Shown: positions 1,059 to 54,533, numbered from the whole stretch's first letter. The stretch is 61,249 nt of DNA, filler included, from Sphacelaria rigidula (GCA_964200075.2; 9 parts of 9 records of this genome joined end to end with filler, not necessarily neighbours in it); one strand, 5' to 3'. Numbers and translations: made by a program. Notes: generated by a model not told the origin, from the sequence alone.

Positions 1059-1618
1059 CTTGAAGGCAAAAGTCTCGTTTTTTTAGTATGTGAACATAGA
1101 ATGAATTGACTGCAGGTTTACAGTGTACGTCAGCAGTTTAGAAAATCCCATTTTGGCCAAGTCTCGCGTCTTATTTTCTCTTCAATTTCAGCCCAAATGC
1201 TCATCAAGTTCAGCACAAATTACCAGAGTTCTTATTTCTTCATCAAGTTCAGCGGAAATGCTTACCTGAAAAATCTTGAAATGTCGAACATGTCGGCCTC
1301 AGATTCTTAACTGCCAGATTCTCGAGTGCTGACGCGTACAGTAAGGCACGTGTCTATTCGATGATTGATTTGATTGGTTTGTTACCACACATGAACTGAT
1401 CCCCGGGGGAGCAAGACTTGGTCATTGTGCACGAGGTGACCGTTTGCTTCGTGACAGAATATGATGAAGTACAAGAAATTATGTGAAGGAGTATAGGTCA
1501 TTTTTTTTTCGGTAAAAAAATTATTTCGAAAAATGAGGAGAAAAGCAGTAATAGTTGATATTTATAATGGTTTGGAACAGTAACAAATTGAAAGATGGTG
1601 AGAATAATAACAACAGTA

Positions 1619-4035: not shown

Positions 4036-4227
4036 GGGCGTGTCTTAGCACGCTAGTTTTCGATCGAAATTGTGCGGTGGAAAACAAGAATCGCGATATC
4101 TGATAGGCAAGTCTTTAACACCATCGTTCATTTTGAAGATGATCGAAATCATGGCCGATCAGATATCGGGATTGTTGTTTTGCATCGCACTTTTTTTAAT
4201 CGAAAACTGATATGCTAAGACACGCCC
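4036..4227. mobile_element. PIF/Harbinger-type (Tourist-like) MITE
   Basis: Perfect 15-bp TIR GGGCGTGTCTTAGCA...TGCTAAGACACGCCC, longer imperfect inner inverted repeat, and a 3-bp TSD TCA on both sides (4033-4035, 4228-4230). Confidence 0.85.
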
Positions 4228-6717
4228 TCAACTATTTTTTGTTTTTACTTCCTCTTGATTCCTTCAAGTATTTTATTCTTCCTACAGTGGTATACTGATG
4301 GATCAATGGATAGATTTAATGGATTGTCGCTTATTAACTGATCGCCGAGGGACCAACCTGTGGTTATTATCCGCAAAGTAGACGTACTCGAGAGAAGCAA
4401 GAACGAAAACATTAACTCGCTGAAAGGGAAGCTGAACAAAGGGGGGGGGGAGGGGGATGCAGGTAGAGGGAGGGTACAGGGTAAACTGAACAACAACAAT
4501 GATCAGAAGACTTGATTTTTTTTGTTCTTATCTAGTCCGACTGGGGGGGAAAGAGTTGAGGCTGATCCCCTTAAAAGAGGTACGTATCTTCGCCGTTGAT
4601 CTTTCGAGAACCGGGAAAAAGGTCTGTCGTTTGTGGGTATGACTGTGTATCCCATGCCCCATTCCGGTACCGCCCCGCGCCCCTCCTCTCATTACAGAAC
4701 AAGGGTTGGGTATGTGGGTAGTGCAAAGGAGCAGGGTTGTTAGCGCAGTCCCAGGGAGGGGGTGGGGAGGTTGGAGATGTCATGGTAAGGTTTGTTCGAG
4801 AAAATTGTGTGTGTGTGTGTGCGTTGGTGCATTAAAATGTTGAAATATCGAAACGTGGCGAGCTAGTTGTCTCTGCTCTTATGTGAAAACAACCAACATT
4901 TTTTTGGGATGGCATTTTTTTCAGTTTTTCGAAATGTTGCAGTTAGTAAAAACTGTGTTGAGGTTCGAAATGTTGAAAGTTTTTGCTGTTGTATCAACAT
5001 TGAGTTGTACAGAACAGGAAGAAGGTCGTTACCGATGCACTTCTCCCTCGTATTGTATACGAGCACTCTTTGTCCTACACCCTGAATGATTACAACAGAT
5101 TACATCGTCTGTAAGTGTGCTGCGTACAGTATAGAATTTGTTGTCTATTTTGCGATAGACGTAATAGTCGATACTGTATGCGGTACATTTTTTTCACAAT
5201 GTGGTATGTTGTCATTGTTCAGGGCAGTTTTGCTTGTCTCGGGTACGTCTATCATGTGACCACGGGTGGATCCCTTGGGGATGAGTTGGAGTGCGACAAT
5301 CAATCAGGATGCGGTATATTCACAGCGTCCGTCTCCCTCTTCCTTGAAGCACACGGGTCATAGAGATGGTTTCCACACGCCGGACAGCTCGTGAGTTACC
5401 TCAAATGACTGATACAAGAATGCTCGCCAGACCCGTTGTCCACTAACTGAAGAGATGTGACCGCGAGGTCCGTGAAGCCAAAACGGTTCCTTGGTGCCAC
5501 TTCGCGTGCGGGCCGTCCGGAACTGGAGGAAGCAAATTCTATCCTGAAAAATACTTTTTTGAAATTATGATTAGTTTATCGAAATGGTTGAACCCTTCGG
5601 GAAGTAGACCCCCACGGAGTGCTGATTTTTTGTTTTTGTGAATCGGCATCATTTTCAGTCATTTTCAGTCATTTTCAAGTTAATATGATGCCTTTTTACG
5701 AAGATTCACAGAACAAAAATCAGCACTTGAGTTCCCAGAGCGTTGAACTCCCCCCTCCCTCGAGAAATTCATTCGATTGATTAATTTTCCACGGTTGTTG
5801 GTCGGGAGTGGTTGGGGTTGAGTATATATATTTTTGGATTGAATTATTATTTTTTGGAGAAAAGCAACACGATATTGGAGAGAGGAAATAGGATGATTTG
5901 TTGATAGCTCATGATACAGATCAGAACACTGGTAGGAAGCAATATTTAGATAAATCATGCGCTGCCTGTCCGACGCGTGTGGACGGTTTTGCGGTGAGCA
6001 GATCTGTACTCGATACACAAGGTGATGTACTGTTTTTTTCCGTTGGGCAGCAACGTTTTTATGAAGCTCGCTCAAAACTCGTGGATTTCACGTGCATACG
6101 TGTGGACTTGTCGATCCCCCTCCCCCTGCCTCCAAGGGTTTGCGTCGGTTGGTGACGACGCTATAGGACACGCCACTCGCTGCGTGAGCTATTGAAAAGG
6201 CACGCAAATCACCACGGGTTTTCCGCTTGCGGCATTTTGCGGCACCCATGCGGTGGTCGAGTTATGTTGCATTGTGAGGGATAGAAGAGCCCGAACTCCG
6301 TGCGAGGGAGAATGATCGTGCTGCTTATTATTTAAATGGTAAGACACACATGGGGCAGCGTGGAACCCATGGCTGTCTCTGGAAGTGGCCATACCAAAAA
6401 ATGAAGCTACTCGTTGTAGACTGTCATCTATATACGATCAGTAAGCTTCGGGCGGAACAATGTTGGCAGGATGCAGCTCACCCTTCGTGCGAGTCGCCGA
6501 GTACATCACGGCGCCTGGCGTTTGGTGATTGACCACGAGCCTGGTCGGCGAAAACCCGGCGTGCTCCGTCCGGTCTTTTTAGGGTTGCGAGGTCGATGGC
6601 CATGTGACCGCGGCATGCAAGATCATGAGTACATCCCGTCCGTCCGTCCGTCCGTCCCCCCCCCCTCGGTTGATCAATGGTCAAATGACTAAGGCAAGCA
6701 ACAAATGAGTACGCCCC

Positions 6718-6817
6718 NNNNNNNNNNNNNNNNNNNNNNNNNNNNNNNNNNNNNNNNNNNNTTAATTAATTAANNNNNNNNNNNNNNNNNNNNNNNNNNN
6801 NNNNNNNNNNNNNNNNN
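6718..6817. other. Assembly spacer (N44-TTAATTAATTAA-N44); the same spacer recurs at 13535-13634, 20352-20451, 27169-27268, 33986-34085, 40802-40901, 47618-47717 and 54434-54533
   Basis: 100-nt N runs with a central six-frame-stop linker. The segments between them are 6717 bp (x5) then 6716 bp (x4). Confidence 0.98.
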
Positions 6818-12224: not shown

Positions 12225-13834
12225 GTGCGTGCGCGTACCTTTTTTGTTCCTTGTGGACGCGCGCTCGTGATGTATATTTGATGTTGTAAGGACGACTAAC
12301 ACACTCACACGATCCACTCAAGTTTCTCGTCAAGCTGTCGCCGTGGCTTACGTGGCAACATGGTACTCCTCCTACTTTAGTTTTTGTTGAACTCATTACA
12401 AGCTCGTGGGCCCAAGTGGGGGTCGGGTGGGATTAGTGGCACCGTAGCGTAGATCTGGCGGCCTTGGGTTGGTCGGTGATATCCTGTTGGTGGCGTTTGT
12501 ATTTAGTCCCAACGTGTCCAGCTGACATCTCGTTTTGACGTTCAATCCAAAACCACGCCACAACCAGGTCAACGCAGCAGCCATTCTATTCCTTCTGCTA
12601 AATAGTAAGGTTTCTTCCCCCGCTAATATGTATTACATGGTGTTCGTGAGTATCAGAGGGCACCACTCGCCAATTCAGAAGCATGTGTCTTCCTATTTAT
12701 TTCCGTTTTTTTTCTTCGCTCGAAAGGCTAATGATTCAGTTAACGCACCCCCTTGCCATGCGCCGGAGAGCATCGCTGGTGTGCGCAACATTTGATGACG
12801 TTCCAATCAATCATCAACATCTGTATATAAGGGAAAATACCTAGCTGATTGCACTGCGATGCACACGGGCAATTTTTATGAGGTGAAAAACCTATTTCTC
12901 GAGCTGAGGGTCGCACAGTTGAGTTTTCGCGATATTAAGTAGAGTTTTTTGCGTATTTTACCCAGGCACTTTTCTGGGACAGTCGACACCAGAAAACTGA
13001 TGTTTTCGACAGTTGCAATGACAACTCCGAATCGAAAATCGAAGAGTACCCGAGTTTTTTTATCCCAAAACTTGATGAAAAAATTCGACAGCTATGTTCT
13101 CAAGACTTTTCGGAAACAAAATAAGCCGGGGTGTAGTTCCCCAGTGATTGACGTGACACCGAAAAACTGATACTATTAGTAATTGAAGTACTGAAAAAGT
13201 GAAGATTTGGCTGTTCCACATTTGCTTCTCACACTTGATTGTCAAGACAACAGCAACTGAATCGAAATATCTACAGCCAGGTCCTCAAGACTTTTTGGAT
13301 GCGAAAGTAACTGTGGCGTAGCCCTTCTTCCAAGATGAAACCATGATATCACCTTTTTGGGCAGGTCATGTCCGGGCCTCTTGATTCCCCCCCTCCTCGT
13401 TACAGTAGGGAGAGAACGATGGCTCTACTAAGAGATAGATGGTAGCCAGAGACGGCGAAACAGGACGGGGATAAGATATGTAGAAGGTTTTTGTGCAATG
13501 TATGGAAGAAACGTAATGAGCGCCGGAATGTTGANNNNNNNNNNNNNNNNNNNNNNNNNNNNNNNNNNNNNNNNNNNNTTAATTAATTAANNNNNNNNNN
13601 NNNNNNNNNNNNNNNNNNNNNNNNNNNNNNNNNNTCTTTTTTTTTTTCTTGTTTTTGTGCGCTTTTGTTAGTGTCTTTTTTTGTTGTTTTTTTTTATTGG
13701 GTGGGGGGGTGGGGGGGGGGGGAGGCGTACCCATTCGTTGCTTGCCTTAAGTCTCTGAAACCGTCACAGACCATTGACCACGCATCTCTTTCGAGACGGA
13801 GCACCGTTCCCACTCGGGGGAGGGGGGGGGGGGG

Positions 13835-19800: not shown

Positions 19801-20599
19801 GAGTAATTTCATGACTTTTGTGTCTGTTAGTCTGGGAAAATGTTTGTTGTCCAGTATCGGTGTCTGGTATGTGTATGGTGATAGATTGTACATTTCATGT
19901 CAGGTTCCGGTAGCTTGTTTTTACAGCGTCATTGCCACTCGGCGCCAACCTAGCACTCTAGAAGAGGAGAGGTTGTGTGTGTGGGGGGGTTAGTAGTAGT
20001 TGTGAGGAGTGGTGATGGCGCTCTACCGAAAGGGAGGAAATCAAACGCACCTGCCGCGCCGGCTAGAAGCGTATGACTGAAAGGAATTAACAAAAAATAT
20101 ATACCTGCTAAAGAATACCTCCAAAACAAGACACGCGTGCGCCGGCCGCACCTGCTGAAGGAACTATTGAATATCAATTTCACCGTTCCATCTGCAAATC
20201 AAATGTCGACAGGTAATGGAGATCCTTATAGTTCTCACAAAACATTCGGAAAACAGCGAAATCTGGGGGGGGGGGAAGAAAGATAGGAAAAAAGAGAAAC
20301 CTAAGAACCTTAACGGAGGATACAAAAAAGGTAAAGAAAGAAAGAGCGGGGNNNNNNNNNNNNNNNNNNNNNNNNNNNNNNNNNNNNNNNNNNNNTTAAT
20401 TAATTAANNNNNNNNNNNNNNNNNNNNNNNNNNNNNNNNNNNNNNNNNNNNTTAAGGGTCACAGTGCTAAGGTACAACACGAGTGCGCCCCCCCCCCCCC
20501 CCCCCCCCCCCGAGTCTCTTGACTGTGCGTTTGCCTGGTGGGTGGTCTAGACCCAACGGCGATGCAACCCTAAACTTCTCGCCACCATCACAACGGGTC

Positions 20600-23000
20600 T
20601 CTGCGGGAACACTGAAGGTCAAGGACAGTTGACATCGTTATTTCACCGTTGTCTGCGACTCTATATATCGGAACGAGCTGTCGAGTGGTTCTCCAGTGGA
20701 GATGTACATTTTCGGTTTGAGGTTCTGTACTGTCGGAGTGTCTGGATGACAAAAATCTGGGCCTCAATGTGCAGCCTCAGAACACTTTGGGCTAAAAGTG
20801 CACGCCTACGGTAGAATCCCTCTGTTGACAACTTCGACAACCATGCCCCCCGTTATTGTGGCCCCAGAGGACCAGTGAACTCTGACAGGCAACCTGAAGT
20901 GAAATAGTATGGAAAGAAGTCATCGATGTCGGCGTGTGGTTCATTCGCGTGCGGCAGGCGGAACAAAGCGTTCGGTAAGACGTGCTGGGCTCCGTCTCGC
21001 CACTGGAGGTCTGCGTCGTACTCCATTAGTCTACTCGCTGGGCCAGCCTAGAAGAGGGTCTGGACGTTGAAAACAGATTCTTACCTCAATTTTGGGAGTT
21101 GCACGTGAAGATTTTTTACGGAGAATCAATAGAGCAAAATAGAAGTGTAGTATGATATCTTGAGATATTTTCTCATGAGTCAAGGGCAAAAACCAAGATC
21201 CAGTGTTTCCTGAAACGTCTCTAACTCATGAAACATTCCCGAAGTCCCAAAATTATTTTTTGATATGCCCCTGCGATTTTCCACGCCAAAAATTGAACTA
21301 GAACTCTCAAAATCGAAATGAGGATTTCAGATTTACATGTTGGGCCAGCCTACAAACGGAGCTGTATGTTGTAGGGCATTTAGCAGCTCGGTTTCGAGAC
21401 TTGTGCTTCGAAAAACTTGTGTGGAGAATGACAAGGGTACACTCACAGTGATAAAAGCTGCCGGATGCAGAGTTTTCCCCCCGGTGAGTTAGCATGTTAC
21501 AGTGTAACAAGAACCATTTTTCACGGGGACATCCTTAACTCACGAAAAAAGAATCGAAACCTAGTTCTGTTTTCGTTTCTTGTTTGATCTCGCGATTATC
21601 CAGACTAAAGTTCAAAGCACAACTTCAAAATATGGGCTGAGAAACTGAGTCGAGAGCAAAAATTAATTTCATTTTCTCACGAAAATGCCCTCAACTGATG
21701 GAAAAAAAGTCAAGATCGCAAACGTTTTGTTCTCAGTTTGCCCTTACGATACTCCATAATTTCAAACCGTGACTCTTAAAACTGAAACGAGAAATCCAGA
21801 ATAGTGCATTGATAACTCCGTTCGAATTATAGTGACTTTAGTATTATAGAATCTAACGTGTGCCATATCCCTAGCTAGATAAAGAATAAGGCGAAGGTGA
21901 GGTTATCGATCCTTTCCCCGTCCGTCCGGGAATTTTCACGCAAAAAATCATCAACCGCTGTAGATTCTGTTCCGGGGTTCTGTCGGACTTCAGTGCGGAG
22001 ATATCTTCGTGCACGTTACGGGGTTTACTCGACATGTCGCTTAATCAACAAGAAAAAAATAGACGGGCTTTCGAGCATATGGATATCAGACCCTTGATAA
22101 TAGACGATCAACAAGATCTGCGGTTCACGGCCCAATTTGTTTGCGCCGATGACATATCGCTGTGAGAGGTCAGTTTCTAGGCTGGCCTAGCTGATAACGG
22201 CCCATCTGTGTAGTTTGGAGCACAAATTACGGCTACAAAACGATCCTATCAGAGCTGAGCAGTCAGTCACCAGCCTAAAACCTTCAACCGGCTACATACG
22301 GTCAGAGATATTGGACCCCCTACACTATGGCCATGCGTTCCCGTTTCGTAGGTGCTCTACGTGCGTCGGTGCGAGAGGATGTGTGACTGGTGGAAGCTAC
22401 GATGCACGTTCCGCCCCTCACCAACTGCACCAATACCGCCCCTTCCCCGGCCATGCTCGCGTTGGTCTGCAACACTGGAAATCCGAGTTCGATTCTCGGA
22501 TTGGTCACCATGACACAACTTGAATACTCTGTATATCCAAAGACACGTGATATTGTAAGCGTGCACGGGTTACACAGTACTGACTGACTGAATCTCAGCG
22601 TGACAATCATCACGAATGAGCACAAAGCGTTGGAGTTCAAGTCACGCACTGTATCAGGCCTGATTTCACCACCAGTGAATGGGAAGTGCAAGCACAAGGA
22701 GAACCCCTCAAGAACATGGCAGCTGATAACGCGTTGTATTAGTTGGTGAACAGACCTCGTAGCTGTTGCTTGGGTAAGCTTGTGTCTGGGGCCAACAGGA
22801 GGAACCTCTCAACCTATGGGTTGAGATATGACAATCTTGTACACTAGCTACGTCTTTCAAGTTAGCCTCTACTCATACGGTCGACATCACCCGTAACACT
22901 TCGCCCATTGTTCAGAGTGGGTTGACCGAACAATCCATTGTTCAGGTCAAAACTGTAGAGATCAGAACGTATGGTCCGGGATCTGAAGGAAAAGAGACGA
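20600..23000 (-). mobile_element. Decayed Ty3/Gypsy pol (RT/RNase H region), interrupted at 21034-22194
   Basis: Minus strand: VLQTNASMAGEGAVLVQ...IVASTSHT...PTKRERMAIV...FRLVTDCSAL...SRNLCSKLHRWAV|RLMEYDADLQWRDGAQHVLPNALFRLP, the Gypsy RNase H motif series. Confidence 0.85.
21034..22194. mobile_element. Non-autonomous TA-targeting DNA transposon (Tc1/mariner-like), 1161 bp
   Basis: TIRs CTCGCTGGGCCAGCCTAGAA / TTCTAGGCTGGCCTAGCTGA with TA on both sides. Removing it plus one TA restores the Gypsy frame RWAVRLMEY. Confidence 0.85.
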
Positions 23001-27168: not shown

Positions 27169-28469
27169 NNNNNNNNNNNNNNNNNNNNNNNNNNNNNNNN
27201 NNNNNNNNNNNNTTAATTAATTAANNNNNNNNNNNNNNNNNNNNNNNNNNNNNNNNNNNNNNNNNNNNTGTCAAACTCCGCCTGGCTCTCTTTGTGCGCG
27301 TAAAACGGCGTGAAAGCTCCAAAAAGGCACTTTTCCAGATTTTTATTTTTGTCTATTATAAGGAGCGGCCTGATGATGGGGAAAAACCGCATGTACGGTA
27401 GAGTAGCAGCAGCAGCAGTACAGAGATAGTACAGAAGGAAGTGCAGTCGAGACGATGTGACTTGCGTGCAAGATTACAACGCGCTCGAGGCGGGCTAACC
27501 CTGCCCCGAGAGTAGACTGTGTTCAGTGGAGAACGATGTCGGCATAAGCCTCATGCCTCGGCGCACAGAGAGCAACGACGGTCTGGCCATTCACACTCAA
27601 CACCATGTAAACAAACACCACCGGAATATTGAGACCCTAGCCACACTGACAACACCAGTCAGGTACACCTAGAGAACCGAGTGCATGAGTGTAGGCTAAA
27701 CTGACGCGATGAGTCAGATATACTCGTATAGCGACAACCAAACTAGTCAAGGTCAAAGACGAGTTCTCAACACCCGCTGGAAGTTGCAGCAAAGCGCAGA
27801 TTTATGTTCAGAGGTATCGTGCATTGAATGCGCATTTCTCACATAGGTCTGTGATAACACGCGCCGACACAAACATGACGTACCCATCACACGAAAGACT
27901 CAGGTTGACTTCACTTTGGATAACTGGAAGAGAAGACTGGAGTTCAAGAGAACGAGAACACTCAAATATGCGAAGACAACTGAATCTGTTGGGAGCGAAG
28001 CTCACTGCCTGCAACACTCTATGAGACCAATCTGATCATGCTCTCATATTTCGTTGCGGGCTACTTACACCAAAGATACGATTTTATTCAGTGCAGCTAC
28101 GTGTACGTGTATCCAGAACACTTATATCGTGTCTGGGACACATTCACCAACCTGGGAATCAACCGTTTCAGCACCCTCCCTTGTTCGCATATTGATGGGA
28201 ATATTCCTACGTTCGATCAATTATCAAAAGCACGCCAATAGGAATGTCGGAACACAATGCCGACTAAACTCTGTTTGAGTGCAGGCCCGGACAAGAAACG
28301 GGGCACGCCCAGCAATAAACCATATTTTCCTCCAGCACTCGCGAAAAGTCGTCACAAATAAATAGAACTCGGCGGAGACGTTTCCCTCCCCCACTTCGTA
28401 CTATTATTATTATTATTATTTCTTTAATTTGTCGCACTTTGATATGGTGGGATAAGCACAATATACATG

Positions 28470-33400: not shown

Positions 33401-35397
33401 AACTATCAAAAAGGCAGTCCAGGAACGGCATCTGCGCTGTCGAGATGGTGGAGATGGGGAGAATTTGGGGCTTACACGGGTAAAGTATGGCGTCGTTAGC
33501 GTCGAATGAAGTTTCAGCACTTCGACCGACGGGTCCTGGCCATTTCATCATTTTTATTGTGATCAACTTGCGGGCTAATGTTGTTGTTTTTTTTGTTTCG
33601 GCTGTTTCAGCACATTCCAGACGTCATCAAAGAGTCGAAAATTCAACACATTGTACGTTGGACCACAAGAAAACATCTTCAATACCTCGGCGATACCTCG
33701 AGCGGAAGTCGGGGCTTTTTCAAGGGATATGAAGGTAGCAGTGCCTGAGGATGGTATCCACCCTTTTATCCTATCGAAAATGAACGATGATACTCCTGAC
33801 TATTCTAGGGGTACATCGTAGGGGCGTTGATATTTCGACGACACCTCTCAGGCGTTCAGGGGCATCATGTAGTTCGCCAACAAACGGTTAGGATGTCGAG
33901 TAACCCCCCCCCGTGTCTCTATTTGGAGTAGGAACGGTGCTCCGTCTCGAAAGGGATGCGTGGTCAATGGTCAAACGACTAAGGCNNNNNNNNNNNNNNN
34001 NNNNNNNNNNNNNNNNNNNNNNNNNNNNNTTAATTAATTAANNNNNNNNNNNNNNNNNNNNNNNNNNNNNNNNNNNNNNNNNNNNTTGCCGGGTAAGAGT
34101 ATGAAAGTCAGAAGTTGCAGAACCATTGGGTATCGGTATGAAAGTCTTACAGAATACACAGAATTATCGAGTACGGGTAGTCCCCGAGAAAATACCCGGA
34201 AGCCGTATCCTGCACAATACAATCTTGAAAATATATTTTTGGTAAGATTCAAACAGGGCGTTACAGACACTAACGTGCTTGTGAATTGACCTAGCAAACA
34301 CATTTCTACTGTGTCGAAAAGACAGGTCTTCAACGCACACTTTGAGCTTCTTCCGATAAAATCATCAAGACTGTTGGTTTCAGAAGCTCATCATTTGCAT
34401 CCGCTCTACCAGCGGACCCCCCTGTCTGCATAGTGGTCAATGTGGTGTAGCCATGCTAACAGCGTGCTGAATTGTTATGCGGACCCACAAAAGGCGGGTA
34501 TCCCCTCGCTCGAAAACAGATATTCAAACATTTGATACGTTTCCTTACACTCGCACTATATTTTTTTTGCATTCAAACGCTCGCTGTTACGGGCTCGGTA
34601 TTCAATCGTACCACGTCGGGGGTATTTTCAGCACTTTCGGGGCGTTTTTCATCCTGAGGTCTGGCTTCCCGGACCACACTTCTTCGAGATATGATCATGC
34701 GCCCACGGAGACAAATCTCAGAGCGATTTCCCTTTCACCTCCACGTCCTGTTTTGATATCGAGACCGGCGGTTCAAAATGAACGAAATGGCAAGTGGTTA
34801 TTCTACCAAAAAATCACACGACGGGGAGTAAAGCCGAGCCACCTGACAAAAAAGAACGTCCAGGAGAACGAAGCATCGATCTTGATTTTTCCCAGTAACT
34901 CCAGATTTTTTTCTCGTGGCAAACCTAGCCCGGTTACCCCGTTCTCATGAGGGAAACGCCTCAACCTTCAGAAATGCCCCGTATCGTAGTACGCTATGAT
35001 TTCGATTCCCAGAAAATTCGGTCTCAGATCGAAGGAATGAGGAGGAGGGGAGTGTTGCTCTGTCGCCCAAGCCTGTCTTCTCCGACTCGAGATCTCGTGC
35101 TCCGCGTTCTGTTGACAAAGTTTTCGTCTCGTCCAGAACAGTGGTTACGGTTCATCAGACCCTATAATTTCTCATTAATGCCTCGCACTTCAGCCCGAGG
35201 GCGGGCTTTATGTTGTTCACGGCAAGCTCTTCGCGCCCATTCCGTACATGCGCAAAATGAGGTGTAGGAAGTAGCTGGTGTGTATTTATTTAGCTCGCTC
35301 AGACTACGTTTCCCCTCAGATTACAGCCCGCGCACTACAGCTAATAATCGTCCTCATCGTATCATCTCAACACGTATTCGAGAGTAAAATGTTTCAG

Positions 35398-36139
35398 TTT
35401 CTGCGTCCGTGTCCGTATCCTGTTTCACCCATACGCGCGCGCGGAAGGCCTTTGTTCTAGCGCCCGGAACCCCCGCCGCAGGCTCCCTCAGCACCACCCG
35501 ACACCGCACCTGGCACCGTCCCCAAGAACACACAGCCACGCGTAGACCTGGTGGCACAACACTTGAAGCGTCGATGCTACCCTTGCCGCATGGCTCCGCA
35601 CAACGAAGACAATCCACATCACCGACAGTCGCAAACGCGTCGCGATCGCAACACCGATTACGCGTGCACACAGATGATTCCTCGGTCACAACCTCCGCTC
35701 CTCTTCCGTCAGCGAGCGACAGCAGTACTTCTACCCCGCCCTTTGCGCGGGGGCCTCACACCGAAATATTTGATTCCGCCGAAGACACAACGGCAACAGA
35801 GCACCGCGCGCTGCTGGAAGGAAAGGACGCATTAGTAGACAAAGAAGAAGAACAAAGCCGGGCAGCACATCATCAGGAGCAAAGCGAACCAGAGCCAAAA
35901 ACAGGAGCAGCAGGAGGAGGAGCGTTCGCGGCAGCAGCAGCAAGAGCGCTGTCGTCACGTAATTTAGGGGAACTCTCGGGTGGTACCGGAGGAGGACCCA
36001 TGAGGCGGGGGAGCATGATGGACAACGCTCCCGCGCAGACCGTGTCTAGGAATGGGCATTACACCGCTGTATTGGTCGTGCCGACGGGGATTGGTGCAGC
36101 TATCGGGGGATACGCCGGTGATGCTCTACCCGTGGCCAG
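35398..36139 (+). CDS. DUF3326-family protein, exon with long N-terminal extension (5' boundary tentative)
   Basis: Open frame ending YTAVLVVPTGIGAAIGGYAGDALPVA-R, the DUF3326 N-terminal signature. Donor AG|gtcaga, phase 2. Tentative acceptor tttcag at 35397. Confidence 0.8.
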
Positions 36140-37030
36140 GTCAGAGTTGGAGTGGGCTTCTCATGGGTCGGATTCTTAAAAAATGGATTGATTCGATCGG
36201 TTGGTTCATTGAATGTATCTGTGGAAGCCGCTCTTGTGAGTGTACGGAGTGGTTATTTGCATGACACGTAAGCCTGAGATGAGGCCCGTCCAAAGAGCTG
36301 CTCCAACCGTGGACTGTTCGAGAGACCCAAAACTCTCATCCCTGTACCGGCGAATTTACGGGACCCTAGGTAGCAGGTCTCGTCGGTGGAAAGAAGCTCA
36401 AAGTAAGGAGAGCCATCGTCGAGCCTGGGGATTCACGAGTATCTTGTGCCCGGTGCAGATTGACTCCAACAGCCTATCACCCAGATCATAAACCTGTCCT
36501 TGCCTGAATATCAAGGGAGAAATTACGCCCGGCTTTGGAGATCCTTCGGGAACATCCGCCCTCGTGAACAATGGCGAACTAGCGGCTCCACACATCACAG
36601 ACTGATCCGCGACAATGTAGAGAAGTTTGTCGTTACTTTTTTTATATATTACAGGGTCCGACGAATCATCGCCAGTTCGAATCGAATCCCCGATTTCTGG
36701 GGCCGGATGGCTCGAAAGAGATGAAAAACAAATTGACCGCGGGTAGAGAAATTCTGTACGCACAAATCGCGCTATCCCACGTGCCTTGGGTGCGGATGCC
36801 TGGGGAACGGTGCAACGCTGGATGGAGACGAAGCCCAAGGATGATTCGTACAGCACGAATCAATTACACTAACAGCAACTAATTTTCAGACGAATCGTTT
36901 TTCGTCCGGTCCTCGTGGACATTTTCACCGTAGCATGAATTACTCCCACAGGCGTTCATTCGTCCTCCCGTTCTTGTTTGCTTCTTCATTGCTGTTCCTG
37001 GACTTTTTTTGGTGTTCAACAATTCCCTAG

Positions 37031-37159
37031 GGTCATGTCGTCTGTCGTGGACAACCTCGTCACGCACCCGAATGTGATGAACGGTGCCATGCTGTACTGG
37101 CCGGAGCCGGGGATGCAGTACGTCGAGGGTTACGCGTTGGACGAATTCTGTGCGGGAAG
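37031..37159 (+). CDS. DUF3326-family protein, next exon (remaining exons not found)
   Basis: ctag|G GTC...GGA AG|gtatgg: VMSSVVDNLVTHPNVMNGAMLYWPEPGMQYVEGYALDEFCAG (THPNV.N and YVEGY.LD.F motifs). Phase matches the previous exon. Confidence 0.9.
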
Positions 37160-37479
37160 GTATGGATGGGAGTCCCTTAAGTGTTCCTCCCAATCTGCCG
37201 GTTTGCGTAGATGGCGCCGTGTTACGGGCACCTGTCTGAACGCACAACGTTGCAGCGTATGCAGAGCTCATGGTTCCGATATTATACGGTTCGAGTTGAG
37301 TATTTTTTGCCTCGAAGGCTAATATTTTTGGTGTCCGAATGAATACTCCGCATTTTCGGACGAATCAGAGTTCATACGGGTTGACTCCGCATAAATATTG
37401 AGTGCACATCATGTACCAAACAATCATCCGGTGTGAATCAAGGATGGTGAAGTTGTACGTTCAAGGCCACGCCGCGAGA

Positions 37480-40720: not shown

Positions 40721-41846
40721 AGGGGGGGGGGGGGGGGGAATAAAGGGGAAAGGGAGGGGCCTCCCCAATACCCCAATTATATCGATCAAAAAAATAAAAA
40801 ANNNNNNNNNNNNNNNNNNNNNNNNNNNNNNNNNNNNNNNNNNNNTTAATTAATTAANNNNNNNNNNNNNNNNNNNNNNNNNNNNNNNNNNNNNNNNNNN
40901 NGTCAATGGTCTGATGACTATAGCATGCATGATCATGAGTACACCCGTTCCCAAGGGTTTTCCGAAAATTGTCACCATTTTTTACTCTTTTTCATGTGAT
41001 TGTTTTGTGATTGTTTTGTGTTTTTTTCTTCAACCTTTTGTTGAAATTGTTGAAATAAATTGATCGACAAACACTGACAAAAACCGAAAAGTATGGCGGG
41101 CTTTGCGAGGTTTGTATAATTGTTTCTGCTCCTTGCCCGCCCTGTCCCGATTATCTCGGATGCTGGCAACGCTCACACACATCAATTATGTACAATACAG
41201 CCGAGGTAGCAACATTATCTCACGCTTCGCCAAATTTTCCCGGACTACTAGTGGTGGGTAGTCGAGGTACGCGACACGGAACATGATCTCATAAATGTAA
41301 TCATGGCGGGTGATGAACTTGGAGGGGCGGTGTGTCCGTCATCTCAGCGGTCTCCATGCCAAGGATATCTGTGCACAGCAGCTGACCGTATCCGCCAACG
41401 CCTCGGCAATAAACGAGGGGACAGCAGGCTGGGTGTCCCCCCCCCTACCCCTCCCCCTCAAAAACTCGATTTTTTTTTATTTTGGCGCCTTCGTGTCCCG
41501 AAATCTATTTTTGACAGACCCTTGTCTGGAGGCGTTCAATCCCTCGGAGGGAAACCAAAAAATCTCTTCTGGAGGACCGCGCACCCCTCCGGAGACGTTG
41601 AATTCCTCTGGAGGCTCGAAAAATTTACCCACCTGGAGGAATTTGGGAGGTAGCCAAATGGCCGCTTGTGTAACAGCTTCTCCTTCTATCACCACTCAAA
41701 TCAGTGTTCCCAGAGTGACAGTGCACGATCCTTGCCAGTAGTACTTGGCATTTCTATGTCCGTTTTTTCAGATGTAGTGGCCGCATCAGCAGCAGTAAAT
41801 AATGTCGAACCGTTTGACGGATCTGCTAACGGCGGCACAGTGTTAA

Positions 41847-41912
41847 ATATACAGCATATCCACTGAGCTATCAGTCAGCGCTGACTGACAGCTCAGTCGA
41901 TATGTTGTATAT
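41847..41912. repeat. 66-bp loopless palindrome, possibly a TIR-only micro-MITE
   Basis: atatacagcatatccactgagctatcagtcagc|gctgactgacagctcagtcgatatgttgtatat, 3 mismatched pairs. Confidence 0.85.
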
Positions 41913-44299
41913 CCATAATAATAAAAGTACAACCGGGGTCCGAGAGCTTGTTCGACTGTTGGACTCCGGTTTTCACCCGAGGGTTGTAATCCCTGTCATC
42001 AGTGCTACCTCCGAGACCATCCTGACGCCTTTTTCTGTAGAAGGAAACAATTTGAGGAAAGGCATGGTATATACATCACTAGTCGTCAAGATGAAGACAC
42101 ATGTTCCCGTCTGTAAGCCGACGGACCGCTTGGGGCAACGCCGATTAGAGGGGTTACAATTCTCGGGTAAGAACCGGAGTCCAACAGTCTAATCATGGTT
42201 AATAACCGGAGTCCAACAGCAAATTTGGCGGCTAGATAATGACTTTGAGTTCGCGATGATCGCTAGATAATGACTTCGGGTGCGCTATAGTCGCCTCGGC
42301 GAAACCGGCGGTCACCGACTTAGTACTTCCACCAAGCTGCTGCAGTGGTACGGGCCGCCATGCTTGGGGGGGCGTTGTACGACGAGTAGTTTTGTGCTGC
42401 TACCGAATGATATGTAATATCTTGTTGTGCAATATACATGCTGTGCTTGTGATGTAACCTGGCTTCGGGATTACCAACCGGCATGGAAATCTCATGATAT
42501 TCTATACATATGTAAAGTATATGAATTTTATATGATGTAGTTTGCTCGCGTTTGAGCAGACAGTGACGTTTATCCAACGTGCATCTCCACATGTCGTGAT
42601 CATACTGCACGGTGACGCAACACAAGGAGAGGTTACAAAGGGAATGTTTTATTATTTCATACTCCTAATTATTCATTATTCATTATTTTGATCATTGATC
42701 AATATCTCAGTACAGCAAGTACTATCGCCATCATCCAACAATCAGGGGGGTACCCCCATCAAAAATGGGGTTTCCCCCCCTCCTCCTGCCACATAATGAG
42801 GTTTTGGTGACAAGGGGGGCCCTGGTGCCGTGACATTCCGATGAAGAGCCCCTTGCCGCGAAACAGTGTCACGCTTGGTGCTAGTGTCACGTTTCCCACC
42901 ACCACCCCCAAAATCGAGACGCGACGAAGTCAAAGAAGTAAACAGAGGGTAAGAATACAACGAAATGATACACCGCTGTAGTACGAGGTGGGCCAGCCTA
43001 GAGGCGGATTTGAAGTTCGCAGGCGAATGCGCCGGCCAATATTTAGACTTGGACCAAAATTTGGTATGGACAATGGATCCTCCTGCAGTCATACACTTCA
43101 CCATCAGCACTGCCCGTCTGTGTAAATTACATGACAGACATGTGCGTGTCGTTGTCGCTGGACTGGCGTTTTGAGCGTGTTGATGACATCGCTGTGCAAG
43201 TTACAACGCGCACGCACATATTTGTTAGTAGTATGTACTGATCGTGTCGTCAGGACCACCGATCATCAAAATTGAGGTTGGAGCATTCCATTGATGATGA
43301 TAACAAGAAAGAATAAGTAAAAAAAATAATAAAAAATTCTTCGGAATATGGTTAGGGTCCTCCACCTCAGGTAGCTATCGATAACTGATACACGCCATGC
43401 AAATTTCGAATCCGATAACCGACATCTTGGGTCTACGTGAAAATCATTTGTGGGGAATTTCGGTGACTTCATTCATGACCTCTGCATTTTTTATTTCACG
43501 TAGGGCCCCGAATATCCAGTTGCCGGGACCCAAACCTGAATGGCGTGGGGGATATAAGGTTAGCTTTTAGCGTATAACGTAATGCTACCCTGTTTTCGGA
43601 AAGATGGGTGTATATGCGAATATTATAGGTTTCTGTTTTTTAATAGTCAAAGGAAAGCTTCCTCCGCAAATTTTATGGTCCCCTGATGGCGAGACGGTAA
43701 TATTTCGGAATCACAAGGGTGACACGGCGGTCAGAGGTTGGGTCTTTGTTAGGGGGGCCAGGTGGGTACCCCGACCGCCCGAATGGGTGCAGGGGGGGGA
43801 GTTCAGGAGGCAGCGTGTGGAGGAGAGAGGGATGAACAGAATCACCCCATACAATTCTCCGAATTGTCAGCATATGACCCATGTCACCGGTTCTTGGCAG
43901 GTCGCAGGCTTAGGAGGACGCCATCGGAACCAGCCAACGTGCAGAGGTTATCCGCGTGCGGTTATCGCGCTGCATAGTTTTCCTCAAGGTTAACTTCATC
44001 CTCATCGTTCGCTGCCGATTCATCTTCGGCGGCGACACACTTGCGCAATTCATACTGACATGTACAGTGTCGCGTATCCGGCGATTCGGCGAAGGGCGTC
44101 GCCACACTACTCGCCACACACCTATGCACCCACGGGCGCGTCGCACCATGCACTGAATACCTTCAATATACACACCAGGAACCGTAAGTGACTATGTAAT
44201 GGAGCAGACAACATCCACTATTTCATATCTACGCGTGCAACGTATTTACAGAAAAAGCAAGCCTCCAAATCACCCCACAGAGTATCCACTCTCACAGAT

Positions 44300-47200
44300 C
44301 CAGGTGTGCAACGCATCTACAAAAAACATGCCTCGAAATTACCCAACCGACTCAATCAAAACGCGAAATCATCATGGCCGTAACCCGCTTCCGATACTGA
44401 TTTCCCCTTCTCAGACCCGCTGAATTCTGAGTCTGAATCTCCAACCCAGATCCTGGCTCAAAGCTTACACCTGCCCTCTGTCGGTCCATCTGGCCCGCCA
44501 TCGTAACAATTGCGATCGGCGGTAGCTGCTCCGGCATCAGATCTCTCTCCCCCCAACCTCCCGCCGTGACGCCGACACGACTCCCCACCAGAACTCGTAT
44601 TCGCCGCGGGCCCCGAAACCTCCGTCGATTCATTCGCCTCGCCCAATCGACGGCATGCAGTGGATTCACCCTTGCGGTGCTTCGCCGTGGATCCGCCCTT
44701 CCCCTTCCGAGGTCGGGGGCGCGCTCCGACATTTTCTCCCGCGACATCAGCTGTGGGAGTAGCGCCGGTCGGTGGGGAAGGAATCGGGGGCGAGAAGCAG
44801 CGGCCCTGGCAACCGCAGCTCAGGGTGCAGTTCCTCAAATACTCGAAGTTTTGGCATCGGTGACACCTGTTGCCCACCTTCTCCGGCCTGCATGCACATC
44901 TGAGGGTTTTCACGTTCCCAAATGTATCAAGGTAACTGTGGCTTGGCAGGTATACAACCGTGTTTTCCCGAGTCAGCTTCACCTCCCCTCTGCTCGCCGT
45001 CTTCACCCCACCCTTGTGTTGAGTTTTCTTTCCGGCTCCACAACCCATCCCCGTCCGTTGAAGTTCACTGTGGGCATCTCAATCCCGAAGCCCCCCCGCC
45101 AGTACTCGAACACTGCATCAGAATTTTGCGCGTGCTCCCTACAGGCGTCCAGGTCTGGGCAGCAGCGGGAAGGCATGTGCCCATGTGCTTTGGTGATACA
45201 GAGGCGGATCTTGTTCACGAATGACTCCAAGTCCCGCCCACACGTGGTGAAGAGAAGGCCTGGGGCCGCGGCGACCCGCTCGAAGGCGTTTCCGTACTTT
45301 AAAAAAAAATACCGTGGCGAGCAGCTTGACGCCCTCGTCGATATCCACCTCCGGGGTGTTGTCTTCTATCTCCACTCTCGGTTTCGTGAAGAGGTTTGGA
45401 GATCGCACGTCCTTTAGCACGAAGTCCCACATGTTCAGGAAGGGAATCCCGGACACGCGCGGCAGGAAGTCACAGCCAGCCAACAGGTAAGTGAAAACAA
45501 ACAGGGCCACCTTTAGAGGTGGCGTCAGCCAAGCATACTACTCGTCGGGCGGCCAAGCACTTTCGCTGCCTTCCCTCAGATCCACGATCGCCCTGGACAC
45601 CCGATTCCCCAGTATATACCGGGGGCCACCGCTCACGATGCGCTTGACAGTAACCTGAACTGCGTCGGCGCCCTGCGGCGGTATCCACCCGGTGGTCATC
45701 GCCAAGGGAACGATAACCCATTGATCAGTATCGATGGAAGTTATGAGCCACTCCGTCGATTGCTTCTTGAACAACCTCTCCGAGTGGATGATAAAGTGGA
45801 CTGCGGACATCTCTCTCTCACCTATGCCGGGGACGACTGCGCTGTGGATTCTCCGATCAGGCCCACTGCCATGACGCCACCATAGCAGACGGCCTTGCGG
45901 GTAGTGAGTAGATCACTGGCGGGGGCACCGCACCTGGCAGACGTGCTTTTGCCACGCTGTTCCCGGCCCCTCGCCGCCTGAAAACGCCGCATGATACGAT
46001 TTTGGGATCGCCCGAACTCCCGCACTGGCGCCAACATCCACGCGTGGCGCCCTCATCGGCGCGCCCGCCTCCTCACGTCCTCCTCCACCGGTCACCGCCT
46101 CAAGATACGTCCGCGGAGGCACCCCTGCGACAGCACTGTCGCCGATAACTCCGCCCGCTACAATTCCTGTCGCAGCTCCCGACACCGGCGGCATCGCCGG
46201 TCCCCCCTCCCCTCGCCCGCCTGCCGCCGCCGCTGAATTCGACCCGCAACCCGCCGCGGTCAGCCCGCCGTCGAAAATACTCGCACCTGACATCACTACT
46301 TCCGTCGCCGTCGCCACCGCCCCCCCCGGTAGTTCGACCATCATCACGTGTGGCTCCCTCATCGACGCGACCGCTCTCTCACGCCCTTTCCCACCAGTCA
46401 ACGCTTCACGATATGTCCGCGGGGGCAACCTGGCACAGCATTACCGCCGATAACCCCGTCCGCCGTACATCCTGCTGCGACTCCCGACACCAGCAGCATC
46501 ACCGGTCCTCCCCCCCTCGCCCGCCTACCGCCGGCCCGTCGCCGGAAACGCTCGCGTGTGACACCGCTAACTCCGCCTCCATCGCTACCGCCCCCCCCCG
46601 GTAGCTCGGCCATCACCACTTCCGCGATCCATGGCCGGCTCGAATTATCCTACCCCCGGTCATCCACACCGTCACATCCCTCTTCGTTTGCCATAGCCGC
46701 CGCTGCTGTGTCGCGACCTCCTTCGCCTGCATTCGGTGCTTCTTTTGCCACATGTATCTGCGTGTAACCACGTCGGGTCTGCGGCAATCTGCTCCCATAT
46801 GTTACAATCAAGGGCCCGTCGTGGTTTTCGACTAGTACTCGCTCGAAAGCACCGCTGGCAAGGCAGTTCCGTACGTGTTTGTTGTTTTGCCGAAGCAAGC
46901 TTTGGAAGCCTGTTACCCACCTCTTGAAGAGGTACTGACGACGGATTTGATGGCGACACCCTCCGTGTATGGTTTTCCGACACGGAAGTAACCGAAAGTT
47001 CACCAGTCGCGCCTTCCCCGCCCGGCAGACATCTAAGCTTGATACGCCCTGCACTCCGACGGTAGTTGCGCCCCCCCACGCAGCCGCGGTTTTCCACATC
47101 TGCGTCATCAGGTGAATCGATCGGTGCCTCCGAGGGACTGAACAATGCAATCGCCCGGGTTTTCAGCGTACGATGGGGGACTTAACTCCTTCCGCACAGC

Positions 47201-47395
47201 ACCCCTTTCATCGGTGTGGCCCCCGGCGACATCCCTAAGATTATTCGCCGATACCTCACGCTCGGAATATGTCAGTCGAGGTGTGCTTTCAACAGCGGAT
47301 GTGGCATGTTCCGGACGGGATAGCGGCCGGAGTGGCGCAGGCACGTAGCCACCTGCCCGGATGAGAAGATGCAAGGGTATATGGGCACAGAGCAT
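44300..47395 (-). mobile_element. AcademX-like DNA transposon remnant: PIN-fold (XPG/FEN1/XRN-like) nuclease plus Cys8 zinc finger, pseudogenised
   Basis: Ordered minus-strand motifs: WVTGFQSLLRQNNK...LIVTYG; VVPGIGEREM; ITSIDTD; FVFTYLLAGCDFLPRVSGI; PDLDACREHAQNSDAVFEYW...GRGW; CACRPEKVGNRCHRCQNFEYLRNCTLSCGCQGRC; acidic tail. Intronless, with stops and frameshifts. Confidence 0.7.
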
Positions 47396-47849
47396 CAGTC
47401 TTCTGGTGTTGGTCGTTTTGCGAGCGTGGGACCGGGGTGTTCATGGCCCACGATACAAGCAGGTGTACGTACGGTCGATTCTCTTAAAAAGCACACTTCT
47501 TCATCGAAAACAAGAGGAGTGGTGTCTGATGCATGCACTGTTATCGGGGTGAATGGGGCCCGATTTTGGGCACTATATATCTGTAAAATGGACCGACCAC
47601 TATCAAAAAAAAAAAAANNNNNNNNNNNNNNNNNNNNNNNNNNNNNNNNNNNNNNNNNNNNTTAATTAATTAANNNNNNNNNNNNNNNNNNNNNNNNNNN
47701 NNNNNNNNNNNNNNNNNTGCCCCCCCCCTCCCCCCTCCCGGTGCTCCGTCTCGAAAGGGATGCGCGGTCAATGGTCAAACGACTAAGGCAAGCAACAAAT
47801 GAGTACACCCCCGCCCCCCCCTCCCCCCCTCCCGAGCCTACTCCGGCGA

Positions 47850-47945
47850 AGAACCGGCGTGCTCCGTCTCGGCTTTTTAGGGATGCGAGGTCAGCGGTCG
47901 TATGACTATGGCATGCAAGACCATGAGTACACCCCCCCCTCCCGC
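47850..47945 (+). mobile_element. Sister LINE-like 3' end (module B) with a C-rich tail; other copies at ~6545-6665, ~40902-40947, ~50895-50955(-), ~53405-53500(-)
   Basis: ccggcgtgctccgtc.gg..tttagggatgcgaggtc...ggtc.tatgactatggcatgcaaga.catgagtacaccccc recurs. Confidence 0.7.
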
Positions 47946-50681: not shown

Positions 50682-50970
50682 CTGCAAGTGGAAGTGGAAT
50701 GGCGTAGCGGCGAGGGGGAAGGGGAAAGGGGAAGTGAGACGGGGGGACGTGGGGGTGGATACTCCTTTGACCATTGACCGCGCATCCCTCTCGATACGGA
50801 GCACCGTTCATACTCCTAGTAGAGACACCTCCAACACTTGGGCGCTCGTTACGATTCTTCCATACGCTACACAAAAACCTCGACCTTTCTTCATGGGGAG
50901 GGTGGGGGTGGAATGTACTCATGATCTTGCATGCCATAGTCATATGACCATTGAGGGTGTTATTACCCAC

Positions 50971-51330: not shown

Positions 51331-53986
51331 GAGTAATCAACATAGTTTACCGAGTTTGTTTGATGACAGTTGGCGCGGTGCGGGAGTGCCCACCCGATCC
51401 ACGAGACCAAAATGCAAAGCGCGTACCAGGGAGAGATGGGGTGTTCCCTTGAGACCGTAGACTCATCCCGAGGAGAAGGGGGGGGGGGGGGGGGTCAAAA
51501 GGGGGGGAAAAAAAAAAAAATGAAAAAAAAAAAAAAAAATAAAAAAGAAAATTTTAAAAAAGTATTTTATTTNNNNNNNNNNGGAGGGGGAGGGGGGGAG
51601 GGGAGGGGAGGGGAGAGGAGGAAAAGAGGGGGAGGAGGGGGGGGGGGGGGGGGGGGAGGTTCAAAGTGCGAGAAACAAAAATAAATGATAACAATACAAA
51701 AAAATATATATGAGCATTTTACAATAGTATTTGTAGTTGTGGAGACACAAACAAAAGCAACAATGGTAACACTACTGACATAATATACTATCAACGTGAG
51801 ATTACCACCTCTTCATGACCCGACCCGCTTACTAATGACTCGGGCCTGTCAACTCAGCCCATCATCCCGGGCCTGAAGAGTCTGTACTTGCGATCCTCCA
51901 TCCTCAGTCCGGGCTACGGCCATGCTTCTCATTCTGGGCTGCGACAAACCTCGCCCCGTTCTGTCACTTTTAGATCTCTACCGCGTACCCACTCGCTCCG
52001 TACACTCCACACCGAGTGAGAAGGTGTCACTTACACGTCCTCTGTCGTCACTTTTTTTTTTCCCTCGGAAAGAGGCAAAAAAACGGCCATTTTTTGGGCC
52101 GGTTACTTTTTTTGCAGCCGTTCGGCGGCATGGTTCAAGCACGAACTGCAAATTTTAGACTCATTTTCTTGATCCAAAAACACCGTAGAATTAATAAAAT
52201 AAAATAAAATGATCGGACATCGTTAAGGGCCCGTACAAATTTATGCACCTTTACTTATGGGACAGAGGAAGTACATGATCACGTGGACACCCCCCCGTCC
52301 CCCCCCCCCGCCTTATGTCGCCTTTGCCGATGAAGAAACGTCGATTTCGCCCACGCGATCGTTCGAAAAAACAAGGCAATTTACGGGTATTGCGAAAAAA
52401 TGGGCGTTCGGGACTGGTTCGGTTGGCTGCAAAGATTGCCGCCGCGGCCCGCTGGTGCAAGTGACATGAATATCAATGGCCGGATGGATGGGTAAAAAAA
52501 TGGGATGTGCGTTTTAATCTCGGCAGGTGCGGCATCTTTTTGAGATGAAGATATGTGACTTCCGTCTTTGAAAGCGTGGGGACGTACGTGAGGAACAGAA
52601 GACTTGAGTTGGCGTGAGTCGACGCGGTGTGGGAGTAGTCATAATTCATTCCTCAATACCAAAATACCAGGCATCCGTCACGGGGAGACATGGGTGATTT
52701 CTTGAGACACTGCGGAAACGTCTCGAGGAAGGGGACGGGTGACAAATGTGACAAAAAAAAAGACAGCGAAGAGATGATGCGCGATATCCCTCATCAGGCT
52801 TTTGTGGGGAACGGGCTGTAAAATTCCCGTAAGACTCGGCTCTATATAGAGAAAAGGGACACGAGAGGAAAAAAATGGGAAAATGAAGAGAAAAAAGGGG
52901 GCTGAATTTTCTGCTTGTTAGGTAGCATATTTCAATGTGAAAATTTGCTGTTTTATTTTGGTGGTGAGTGTCAGCCTTGTCTGATCACTTGAACCAAAAG
53001 GTGCATCGCACCATAGGACACTGACACACATCCGCACTGTGGAGTATGACAGATATCCAGGAGCGCAACCGAAACAAACGCGTATGGCACACACACATAC
53101 CAACCGAACGATAGGCAAGCATTGGAGGATGAAAGACGGGCAGTGGATTATGACAGGGTAGCGTAAGCGACAAGCACTGGATAAATCTGCACTTCGTATA
53201 TATTTTCAGTGGAATATGACACACATACACACATACACAGGTTACAGCTCACACGTATTATTCTCACCCTGTCTTGAGGTTGGATGATAGAGCGATGAGA
53301 AACAGCAGCGTCGTCGCATTCTGTTCATCCATGGAAAGGAACACGAGAGACAAACAACAGAAAAAAAAACGGCACCATGTGAGCACGGGAGGGACAACGG
53401 GGATGACAGGGGTGTACACGTGATCTTGCAGGCCGTAGTCATAAGACCATTGACCCACCCCTACCAAGCCTGGACGGGGCACGCCGGGTTTTTACCGGAT
53501 CAGGCTCGCAATCACCAAGAGCGAAGCGCCATGGTGTGTTCGGCAAGCCGCATGAGGGGTGACCTGCACCCTGCTAAGACTGTTCGGCCCAAAGCGTACG
53601 GATCATCTTGCATTTGGATGACAGCCGCGAAATAGTTGCTTCATTTTCTGGTTTCGCCACTTCAAGAGACAGCAACGGGTTACACGGCCTCATGGGTGAC
53701 TCACCACCAGCGGGGGAAGGGGGGCTGCAGTATTTAAAACAAGGAAACAGCGCAATTATTGTTCAACACCTCTGTATTTCAGTCGTTAGCTCTCATCTTG
53801 GCTTTAATAGTTCCTGGTCAACGTAAAAAGAAAAAGAAGTAAGGCGCAACAGTGTATCACCAACACACCCTCATATTTTGGGCACGTTGTGTGAACAGGT
53901 ATACAGTGATTGTTATCAACATCAAAGCCCCTTCCCCCAGCACGAAGCAACTGTGGAAAATGACGCGACAGACGTTGAATTATCAA

Positions 53987-54372: not shown

Positions 54373-54533
54373 CTTCAAACTGTCTAGACTACACAACTGC
54401 ACGTTGAGCAAGTAGCCGACGCGAAATACAGTANNNNNNNNNNNNNNNNNNNNNNNNNNNNNNNNNNNNNNNNNNNNTTAATTAATTAANNNNNNNNNNN
54501 NNNNNNNNNNNNNNNNNNNNNNNNNNNNNNNNN

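Follow-up and report, generated by a model that had tools for sequence, protein, structure and literature searches.

What kind of element left behind a broken, nuclease-like coding sequence in the genome of Sphacelaria rigidula, and what multiplied it? The sequence lies on the minus strand of a 61,249-base stretch of this genome (GCA_964200075.2; the whole stretch is hereafter the window), which consists of nine pieces of 6716–6717 bp rather than a single locus, neighbouring pieces not necessarily being adjacent in the genome; the coding sequence sits on piece 7 (40902-47617). A preliminary description had proposed an AcademX-like transposon encoding an XPG/XRN-type nuclease and a Cys-rich finger, apparently without the DDE transposase. 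The analysis reported here showed that (i) this copy is a pseudogene, unable to make a protein and with no functional weight, and (ii) it belongs to a decaying, intronless family of repeats that brown algae (Ectocarpales) carry in many copies. The family probably specifies a FEN1/XPG-like metal-dependent 5′ nuclease, as judged from aligned sequence motifs; support for this assignment was moderate, and the hhalign P value depended on the profile used. On balance, the copy is read as a dead member of a brown-alga nuclease family that most likely worked as an accessory nuclease for a DNA transposon of the cut-and-paste type.

A decayed coding sequence and its relatives

The minus strand could be read from 47162 to 44790 as a nuclease core followed by a CP..YW..GW region and an eight-Cys cluster, passing over at least three in-frame stops and three frameshifts (Table 1). 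The peptide motifs listed in the preliminary description (FQSLLRQNNK, PGIGERE with SIDTDQ, LLAGCDFLP, H..YW..GW and eight Cys C-terminal to the nuclease) were all located on that strand, far above chance and each within its own segment, and the intronless reading that joined them over stops and frameshifts was borne out. When a hidden Markov model (HMM) of the family was built from 18 members (524 positions), its positions 132–484 mapped to four consecutive minus-strand open reading frames (ORFs), with no further match among the window's 2455 ORFs. No second copy was found within the window by blastn, tblastx, tblastn or HMM.

The N region of this copy is vestigial. Its match to the N-domain HMM was weak (E 0.062, 9.2 bits, HMM 88–150), yet it was the top one among the 2455 window ORFs and lay in the right place; a word search for protein relatives of this region found none in 118 candidates. 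The F..LL..NNK motif aligned with the arch motif of the family (yQpfLR..nn) and not with the nuclease N-terminus. The low-complexity spacer that follows contains blastn self-matches between 46031-46229 and 46338-46533 (79%) and between 46263-46347 and 46534-46619 (77%; repeat families D1–D5), although TRF reported no repeat there; its PPRTY.EA.TGG module is also present in the relatives P0036, P0040 and P0131. Where this copy has the TGA, relatives carry Arg, and in place of the second TAG they carry Gln; these stops can therefore be understood as point mutations in a formerly open frame. The likely coding start lies near 47300–47400, which leaves ∼150–250 bp before the other repeat sets in and the piece ends.

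Table 1. Positions of the features discussed, counted from the first base of the window
Feature	Position	Strand	Remarks
Repeat-family extent	43188..47548	-	From diverged contigs; boundaries approximate
Diverged contig records	43188-43910, 43193-43947, 44016-44596, 45029-45703, 45630-46155, 45930-46324, 46085-46516, 46911-47288		
N region, vestigial	46653..47162	-	FQSLLRQNNK..RNCLAS arch motif, strand ..LIVTYGS; closes at TAG 46650-46652
Gly/Ala/Pro low-complexity spacer, N to I region	46031..46619	-	∼305-bp tandem-duplicated unit; PPRTY.EA.TGG module twice
Frameshift	near 46425	-	Within spacer
In-frame TGA	45913..45915	-	Arg in relatives (P0003, P0006, P0036, P0040 read ..HRS..)
Nuclease I region	45541..45912	-	PGIGERE (two Glu), SIDTDQ (two Asp); family HMM E 6e-36, HMM 132–241
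In-frame TAG	45538..45540	-	Gln in relatives P0003, P0009, P0014
H3TH-like region LLAGCDFLPRVSGIPF and following helices	45142..45537	-	Holds LLAGCDFLP; family HMM E 1.5e-28, HMM 247–339
Frameshift in T9/A3 run	45298..45309	-	Shifted reading common to P0009, P0012; P0024 in frame throughout
CP..(Q..R)..YWRGGFG..F.GRGW region	45006..45365	-	Family HMM E 1.4e-22, HMM 322–415
Frameshift	near 45030	-	
Cys cluster CxC-x8-C-x2-C-x8-C-x3-CxC-x3-C	44797..44898	-	8 Cys here; family HMM E 4.3e-12 (44791-45018)
Proposed left terminus	43501..43513	+	Inside multicopy homology, not an end
Piece end, likely another very abundant short repeat	47549..47617	.	Ends poly-A; encloses proposed right terminus 47563-47575
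Eight spacers between pieces	6718-6817, 13535-13634, 20352-20451, 27169-27268, 33986-34085, 40802-40901, 47618-47717, 54434-54533		Identical

When the segment 45139-45912 (with X for the stop) was compared by phmmer with 1.84 billion representative proteins, 164 matched at E ≤ 1e-3, 86 at ≤ 1e-10 and 13 at ≤ 1e-30, the 164 being representatives at 50% identity. The best match had an E-value of 1.5e-49 at 45% identity; most of the matches were fragments, and full-length members were recovered through a word-index search as stand-alone ORFs of 532–666 amino acids. Only two members could be named by organism, Pylaiella littoralis and Ectocarpus sp. CCAP 1310/34 (unnamed proteins; brown algae, Stramenopiles), which agrees with the stramenopile lineage proposed earlier, while the cluster of the 666-amino-acid protein had four members on contigs of 25–648 kb. 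In all nine full-length members (alignment A4), E238, E240, D270, D272 and D357 were invariant together with seven Cys, as were Y479, W480, F493, G497 and W498. Because the residues of GIGEGE, SxDTDQ, CDFxP, YW and F...GW, like the Cys, are kept in these nine proteins at only 27–40% identity to P0155, some members must have been selected as proteins. No relatives were found in IMG/VR (three patterns), nor in JGI metagenomes or prokaryote genomes, and the best matches were non-viral; giant-virus nucleases had been the outcome named beforehand as telling against a transposon.

The database 'proteins' P0009, P0012 and P0114 themselves read over frameshifts, and public protein sets must therefore hold many translated pseudogene fragments of this nuclease repeat.

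Comparison with FEN1/XPG nucleases and CXC proteins

The comparison set for the nuclease assignment was made up of archaeal FEN1 genes collected through PF00867 (28) plus four viral FEN-like genes, and hhalign was run after removal of the spacer from the family. The best alignment, of the spacer-cut family with these 28 archaeal and four viral sequences, had a P value of 1.3e-4 and a score of 39.8 over 180 columns, with the motifs in register: YD..VPPIK..Q..R of the family faced FDGkpp.LK...R of FEN1, GEGE faced EGEA, SvDTDQ faced SQDyD and GCDF faced GTDf. A 125-sequence profile gave P 9e-4, and in the spacer-cut runs the catalytic motifs stayed in register over 113–181 columns. Control scores were lower (14.4–26.5 overall), namely 16.3 with a reversed template, 18.7 with a reversed query and 17.7–26.5 with 20 block-shuffled templates. 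In the window copy, the I region was likewise in register with EGEA and SQDyD, and the H3TH-like region aligned with ILiGTDfN.GvkGIG of FEN1, the tail of that ORF past the homopolymer being out of frame. The N region of the family has the YD, and a Lys and an Arg 7 residues apart; the window copy keeps the acidic residues of the I region.

Several results weigh against this assignment. Other profile combinations gave hhalign P values of 0.15, 0.38, 0.063, 0.027, 0.11, 0.035, 0.02 and 0.0018, the uncut comparison of alignments A4 and A5 gave E 0.32, and the addition of one viral FEN sequence lowered one hhalign score. Pfam showed no XPG match in 126 of 126 members, and nothing over the cut-off in eight pieces of the window; NCBIfam and PHROGs, consulted for 11 members, showed no FEN/XPG match; and PDB sequence searches with a single protein or a profile returned chance matches only (E ≥ 0.14), no FEN among them. 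The XPG-type nuclease of the preliminary description is kept here, with moderate support, for its motifs, which are in register with FEN1 and outscore the controls, while falling below what these four resources detect by sequence.

Compared with FEN1/XPG/EXO1 (XPG_N PF00752, XPG_I PF00867) and with the giant-virus and poxvirus G5 enzymes, the family has colinear motifs and shares all the acidic residues; the 7-residue distance between Lys and Arg is a further likeness, and, as in XPG, a spacer intervenes between its N region and its I region. The Gly-rich loop of the H3TH is, however, replaced by G(L/I)PF, the C-terminus has an additional conserved region as well as the Cys cluster, and the family is multicopy and decaying rather than a single repair gene. 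Neighbours in the ESM atlas included Pox_G5 (0.83) and XPG_I/XPG_N clusters (0.80 and 0.79), scores that come without alignment or E-value. The nearest named nuclease clusters there were those of Nucleocytoviricota, and viral FEN-like proteins spell their motifs APGEGEA, STDTD and GCDF.

C-terminal to the nuclease, the CP..YWQ..F.G.GW region is conserved, without an assigned fold. The cluster that follows it has eight Cys in the window copy and nine in the family consensus, seven of them invariant. The CXC domain of tesmin/TSO1 has nine Cys, arranged as CxC..C..CxC..C..CxC..C. The family cluster is CXC/tesmin-like by this pattern, having likewise nine Cys in CXC-like order, but its spacings differ and Pfam TCR (PF03638) matched none of the 126 members at E ≤ 10. 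In the nearest atlas clusters, PF03638 was present in 36% and 10% of the members, or the proteins were named CXC proteins. The nine-Cys CXC-like zinc cluster is predicted to bind DNA, and probably does so.

Abundance, boundaries and possible mode of spread

Logan contigs of three DNA-type sequencing runs (X1, X2 and X4) were placed on the window at ≥ 80% likeness, summed depth not being equivalent to copy number. In all three runs, diverged contigs (∼13–17% other letters, i.e. ∼85% identical) covered 43188-47288, in line with the multicopy family that the preliminary description had led one to expect. Summed depth in X1 was 275–930 in the flanks and 1350–4690 over 44710-46053, against 20.8–26.3 for contigs identical to the window, and in every bin the diverged contigs exceeded the identical ones. 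At the T-run of Table 1, P0009 and P0012 pass from the correct frame into the shifted frame of the window, whereas P0024 reads through. This frameshift, being common to relatives, was therefore inherited, and the sub-lineage carrying it multiplied after inactivation, which suggests duplication or copying in trans.

A further run, X6, whose RNA status is only a guess, had window-identical contigs at 43928-45485 and 45937-46557 with depths of 144 and 133, and diverged copies at depths of 4–21. Relative to the DNA runs, depth in X6 was ∼0.4–0.9 over 44038-47397 and 0.01–0.03 in the flanks. If X6 is RNA, it gives good coverage of the pseudogene copy; as the RNA status is guessed, the pattern is a weak hint of transcription rather than evidence for it.

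The preliminary description had placed TAG-type termini at 43501 and 47575. The 10/13 inverted match between them exists, but 25 such pairs occurred between the two 300-bp flanks (shuffle mean 8.9), and in 29 of 30 shuffles the best match was 10/13 or better. Six diverged records run across 43501 and stop only at 43188-43193, beside a high-copy repeat. On the right, piece 7 stops 42 bp past 47575; summed depth in X1 rose from 870 in the preceding bin to 13594 in bin 47398-47617, and joints 40946>47549 were seen in one contig of X1 and two of X2, with only 23 letters on the joint side, so that the exact start is uncertain. These observations suggest that another abundant repeat contains or adjoins the right terminus. 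The pair was rejected as termini or as a terminal inverted repeat (TIR), given the chance-level match, the copies crossing the left arm and the position of the right arm in or near another repeat. Placing the copies, as had been advised, did yield an extent of ∼43188-47548, with high-copy repeats of other kinds on both sides, but neither a TIR nor a target-site duplication (TSD).

One of these neighbouring repeats occupies 42918-43141 and reached a summed depth of 152,000 in X1. Loose contig ends cluster there at 42982, 43024 and 43055, immediately to the left of the point at which contigs of the nuclease family end.

The family is probably transposon-borne; context and mechanism are inferred, the former solely from its multicopy, intronless and decaying state, because no transposase, TIR or TSD was seen. 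Several observations argue the other way. A transposase Pfam family was matched by none of the 90 flanking ORFs (≥ 35 amino acids, outside the core) on the 6.7-kb piece, the DDE_Tnp_4 type of PHIS/ISL2EU included, and relatives of 1060–3025 amino acids, the size of fused forms, were absent among 8000 candidates, which is weak evidence. Intact members start at the nuclease or just before it. When 43141-43300 was compared with 47441-47617, the highest-scoring local inverted match reached 14 (shuffle median 15), no TIR being seen, and a TSD is not readable without true ends. The DDE of Academ is without a Pfam model (PMC5751038). A DDE gene may lie beyond 47617 or elsewhere, and its absence is not judgeable from a copy at the end of a piece. 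The earlier statement that the element lacks a DDE transposase accordingly holds for the 6.7-kb piece, which ends ∼250–300 bp upstream of the likely coding start. The deletion derivative suggested at the same time fits less well, as the intact relatives are the stand-alone ORFs described above, with conserved catalytic residues, and no relative of 1060–3025 amino acids was found (weak evidence, as said).

Accessory nucleases are common among known transposons, some in fused form and others encoded by a second gene (PMC10045372, PMC4482050, PMC9587614). ISL2EU, of ∼4840 bp, has a DDE ORF and an ORF2 for a YqaJ exonuclease (PMC4482050), and the E, D and P lineages of Kolobok carry accessory nucleases (PMC9587614). 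In Academ, which has TIRs and 3–4-bp TSDs, AcademX encodes a nuclease and AcademH a helicase (PMC10045372). The product of the brown-alga family, ∼600–670 amino acids long and predicted to be a FEN1/XPG-type 5′ nuclease with a Gly/Ala/Pro spacer, an H3TH-like GCDFLP motif, the YW..GW region and the nine-Cys cluster, most likely acted similarly as the accessory nuclease of a cut-and-paste transposon, comparable to the enzymes of AcademX, ISL2EU and those lineages of Kolobok that bear a nuclease. Recruitment to DNA would then fall to the Cys cluster, and flaps or gaps remaining at excision or insertion would be trimmed by the nuclease, with the DDE transposase encoded past the end of the 6.7-kb piece, by a separate gene or by master copies only. 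In ISL2EU and PHIS (Harbinger-like) elements of ∼4–5 kb, the nuclease has its own gene and comes with a DNA-binding module, a layout similar to that of the family. Unlike in those elements, the nuclease of the family is far more divergent, without a Pfam XPG match, and its zinc module is a nine-Cys CXC-like cluster rather than SWIM or YqaJ.

An AcademX protein is a single transposase-nuclease in which the nuclease is followed by a Cys8 cluster. The nuclease-then-Cys order of the family fits that layout, and the window copy could conceivably be an AcademX transposon proper, with DDE, XPG nuclease and Cys8 finger in one element and the DDE lost here or lying past the end of the piece, which does come soon upstream of the likely coding start; the probability of this is rather low. 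Neither the window nor, as a fusion, any relative showed a DDE, no TIR was found, and the intact brown-alga members are stand-alone nuclease ORFs rather than parts of a fused protein. Compared by description only, the family resembles AcademX (Kapitonov and Jurka 2010; Kojima 2020) in being a multicopy eukaryotic repeat in whose protein a Cys-rich cluster comes after an XPG-type nuclease, and differs from it in having no visible DDE, TIR or 3–4-bp TSD and in its stramenopile host. That the AcademX lineage encodes a nuclease (PMC10045372) is in favour of a kinship, as are the nearest atlas clusters, which hold proteins of Mollusca and Arthropoda (417–727 amino acids, some with TCR/CXC; scores 0.95 and 0.88, given without alignment or E-value), Academ being abundant in bivalves (PMC10294476) and in the whitefly (PMC9143410). 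A literature search produced no report of Academ in brown algae, no paper joining Academ with XPG and none joining an XPG nuclease with the transposase of transposons.

The family protein might instead be the only one encoded by an autonomous unit of ∼4.4 kb, whose spread it would drive without DDE, for example by homing-like cutting and repair copying. The repeated unit of ∼43188-47548 has space for the nuclease gene alone, no longer fused form was found, and intact ORFs with catalytic residues persist over sub-lineages that are 27–40% identical, which argues for selection on the protein. Yet such a unit is improbable: its boundaries are uncertain, both sides adjoin other high-copy repeats on a piece of only 6.7 kb, and the multiplication of a defective sub-lineage fits mobilization by another element as well. 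Moreover, no mobile element is known to move by a FEN-type nuclease alone. It is equally doubtful that the brown-alga family spreads without any DDE, HUH, tyrosine or serine recombinase and has the mollusc and arthropod 'CXC proteins' as its kin. Least likely of all would be a family of host genes specific to the lineage, its pseudogenes having arisen by segmental duplication, or a gene of a giant virus (a phaeovirus or other Nucleocytoviricota). Two annotated brown-alga genomes do carry members as ordinary gene models, and both the similar motif spelling of viral FEN-like proteins and the origin of the closest named nuclease clusters of the atlas, which come from Nucleocytoviricota, are in keeping with a viral source; nevertheless, the gene is intronless, its many decayed copies have ∼85%-identical non-coding flanks, the frameshift was inherited, and, as reported above, viral relatives were missing from IMG/VR and from the best matches.

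Should the family prove related to Academ, a poorly known transposon superfamily would be extended to stramenopiles, with the nuclease-plus-Cys module as a gene of its own; should it be tied to no transposase, it would represent a selfish element of a kind not seen before. In both cases it is a sizeable unannotated protein family, with 164 representatives and no Pfam, NCBIfam or PHROGs match, whose members crowd the gene sets of brown algae under the label 'unnamed protein product'.

The pieces of the window and their other features

The nine pieces are joined by eight identical spacers made up of 44 N, TTAATTAATTAA and a further 44 N, and they appear to be separate contigs from a fragmented, length-sorted assembly. 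Several of their ends are homopolymers, microsatellites or one common short repeat. This very abundant short repeat (GTCAATGGTC...) was found at or near several piece ends (40902-40946, 50914-50954, 47902-47934, 53410-53454 and 6613-6633); its summed contig depth in X1 was ∼730,000, and hundreds of loose ends run into poly-C.

Elsewhere in the window, two ORFs on the plus strand, 35388-36176 and 36939-37319, matched successive parts of DUF3326 (PF11805; E 8e-11 and 1.7e-19) and look like exons of a single intron-containing host gene. The ORF at 22323-22808 on the minus strand had a below-cut-off match (E 4.9e-5) to RT_RNaseH_2, the RNase H domain of reverse transcriptases, and is probably a retroelement remnant. 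On piece 7 itself, a 59-nt inverted repeat (41951-42009 and 42134-42192), with arms 80% complementary and 124 nt apart and with a nested 23-nt pair, may be a small foldback element or one resembling a miniature inverted-repeat transposable element.

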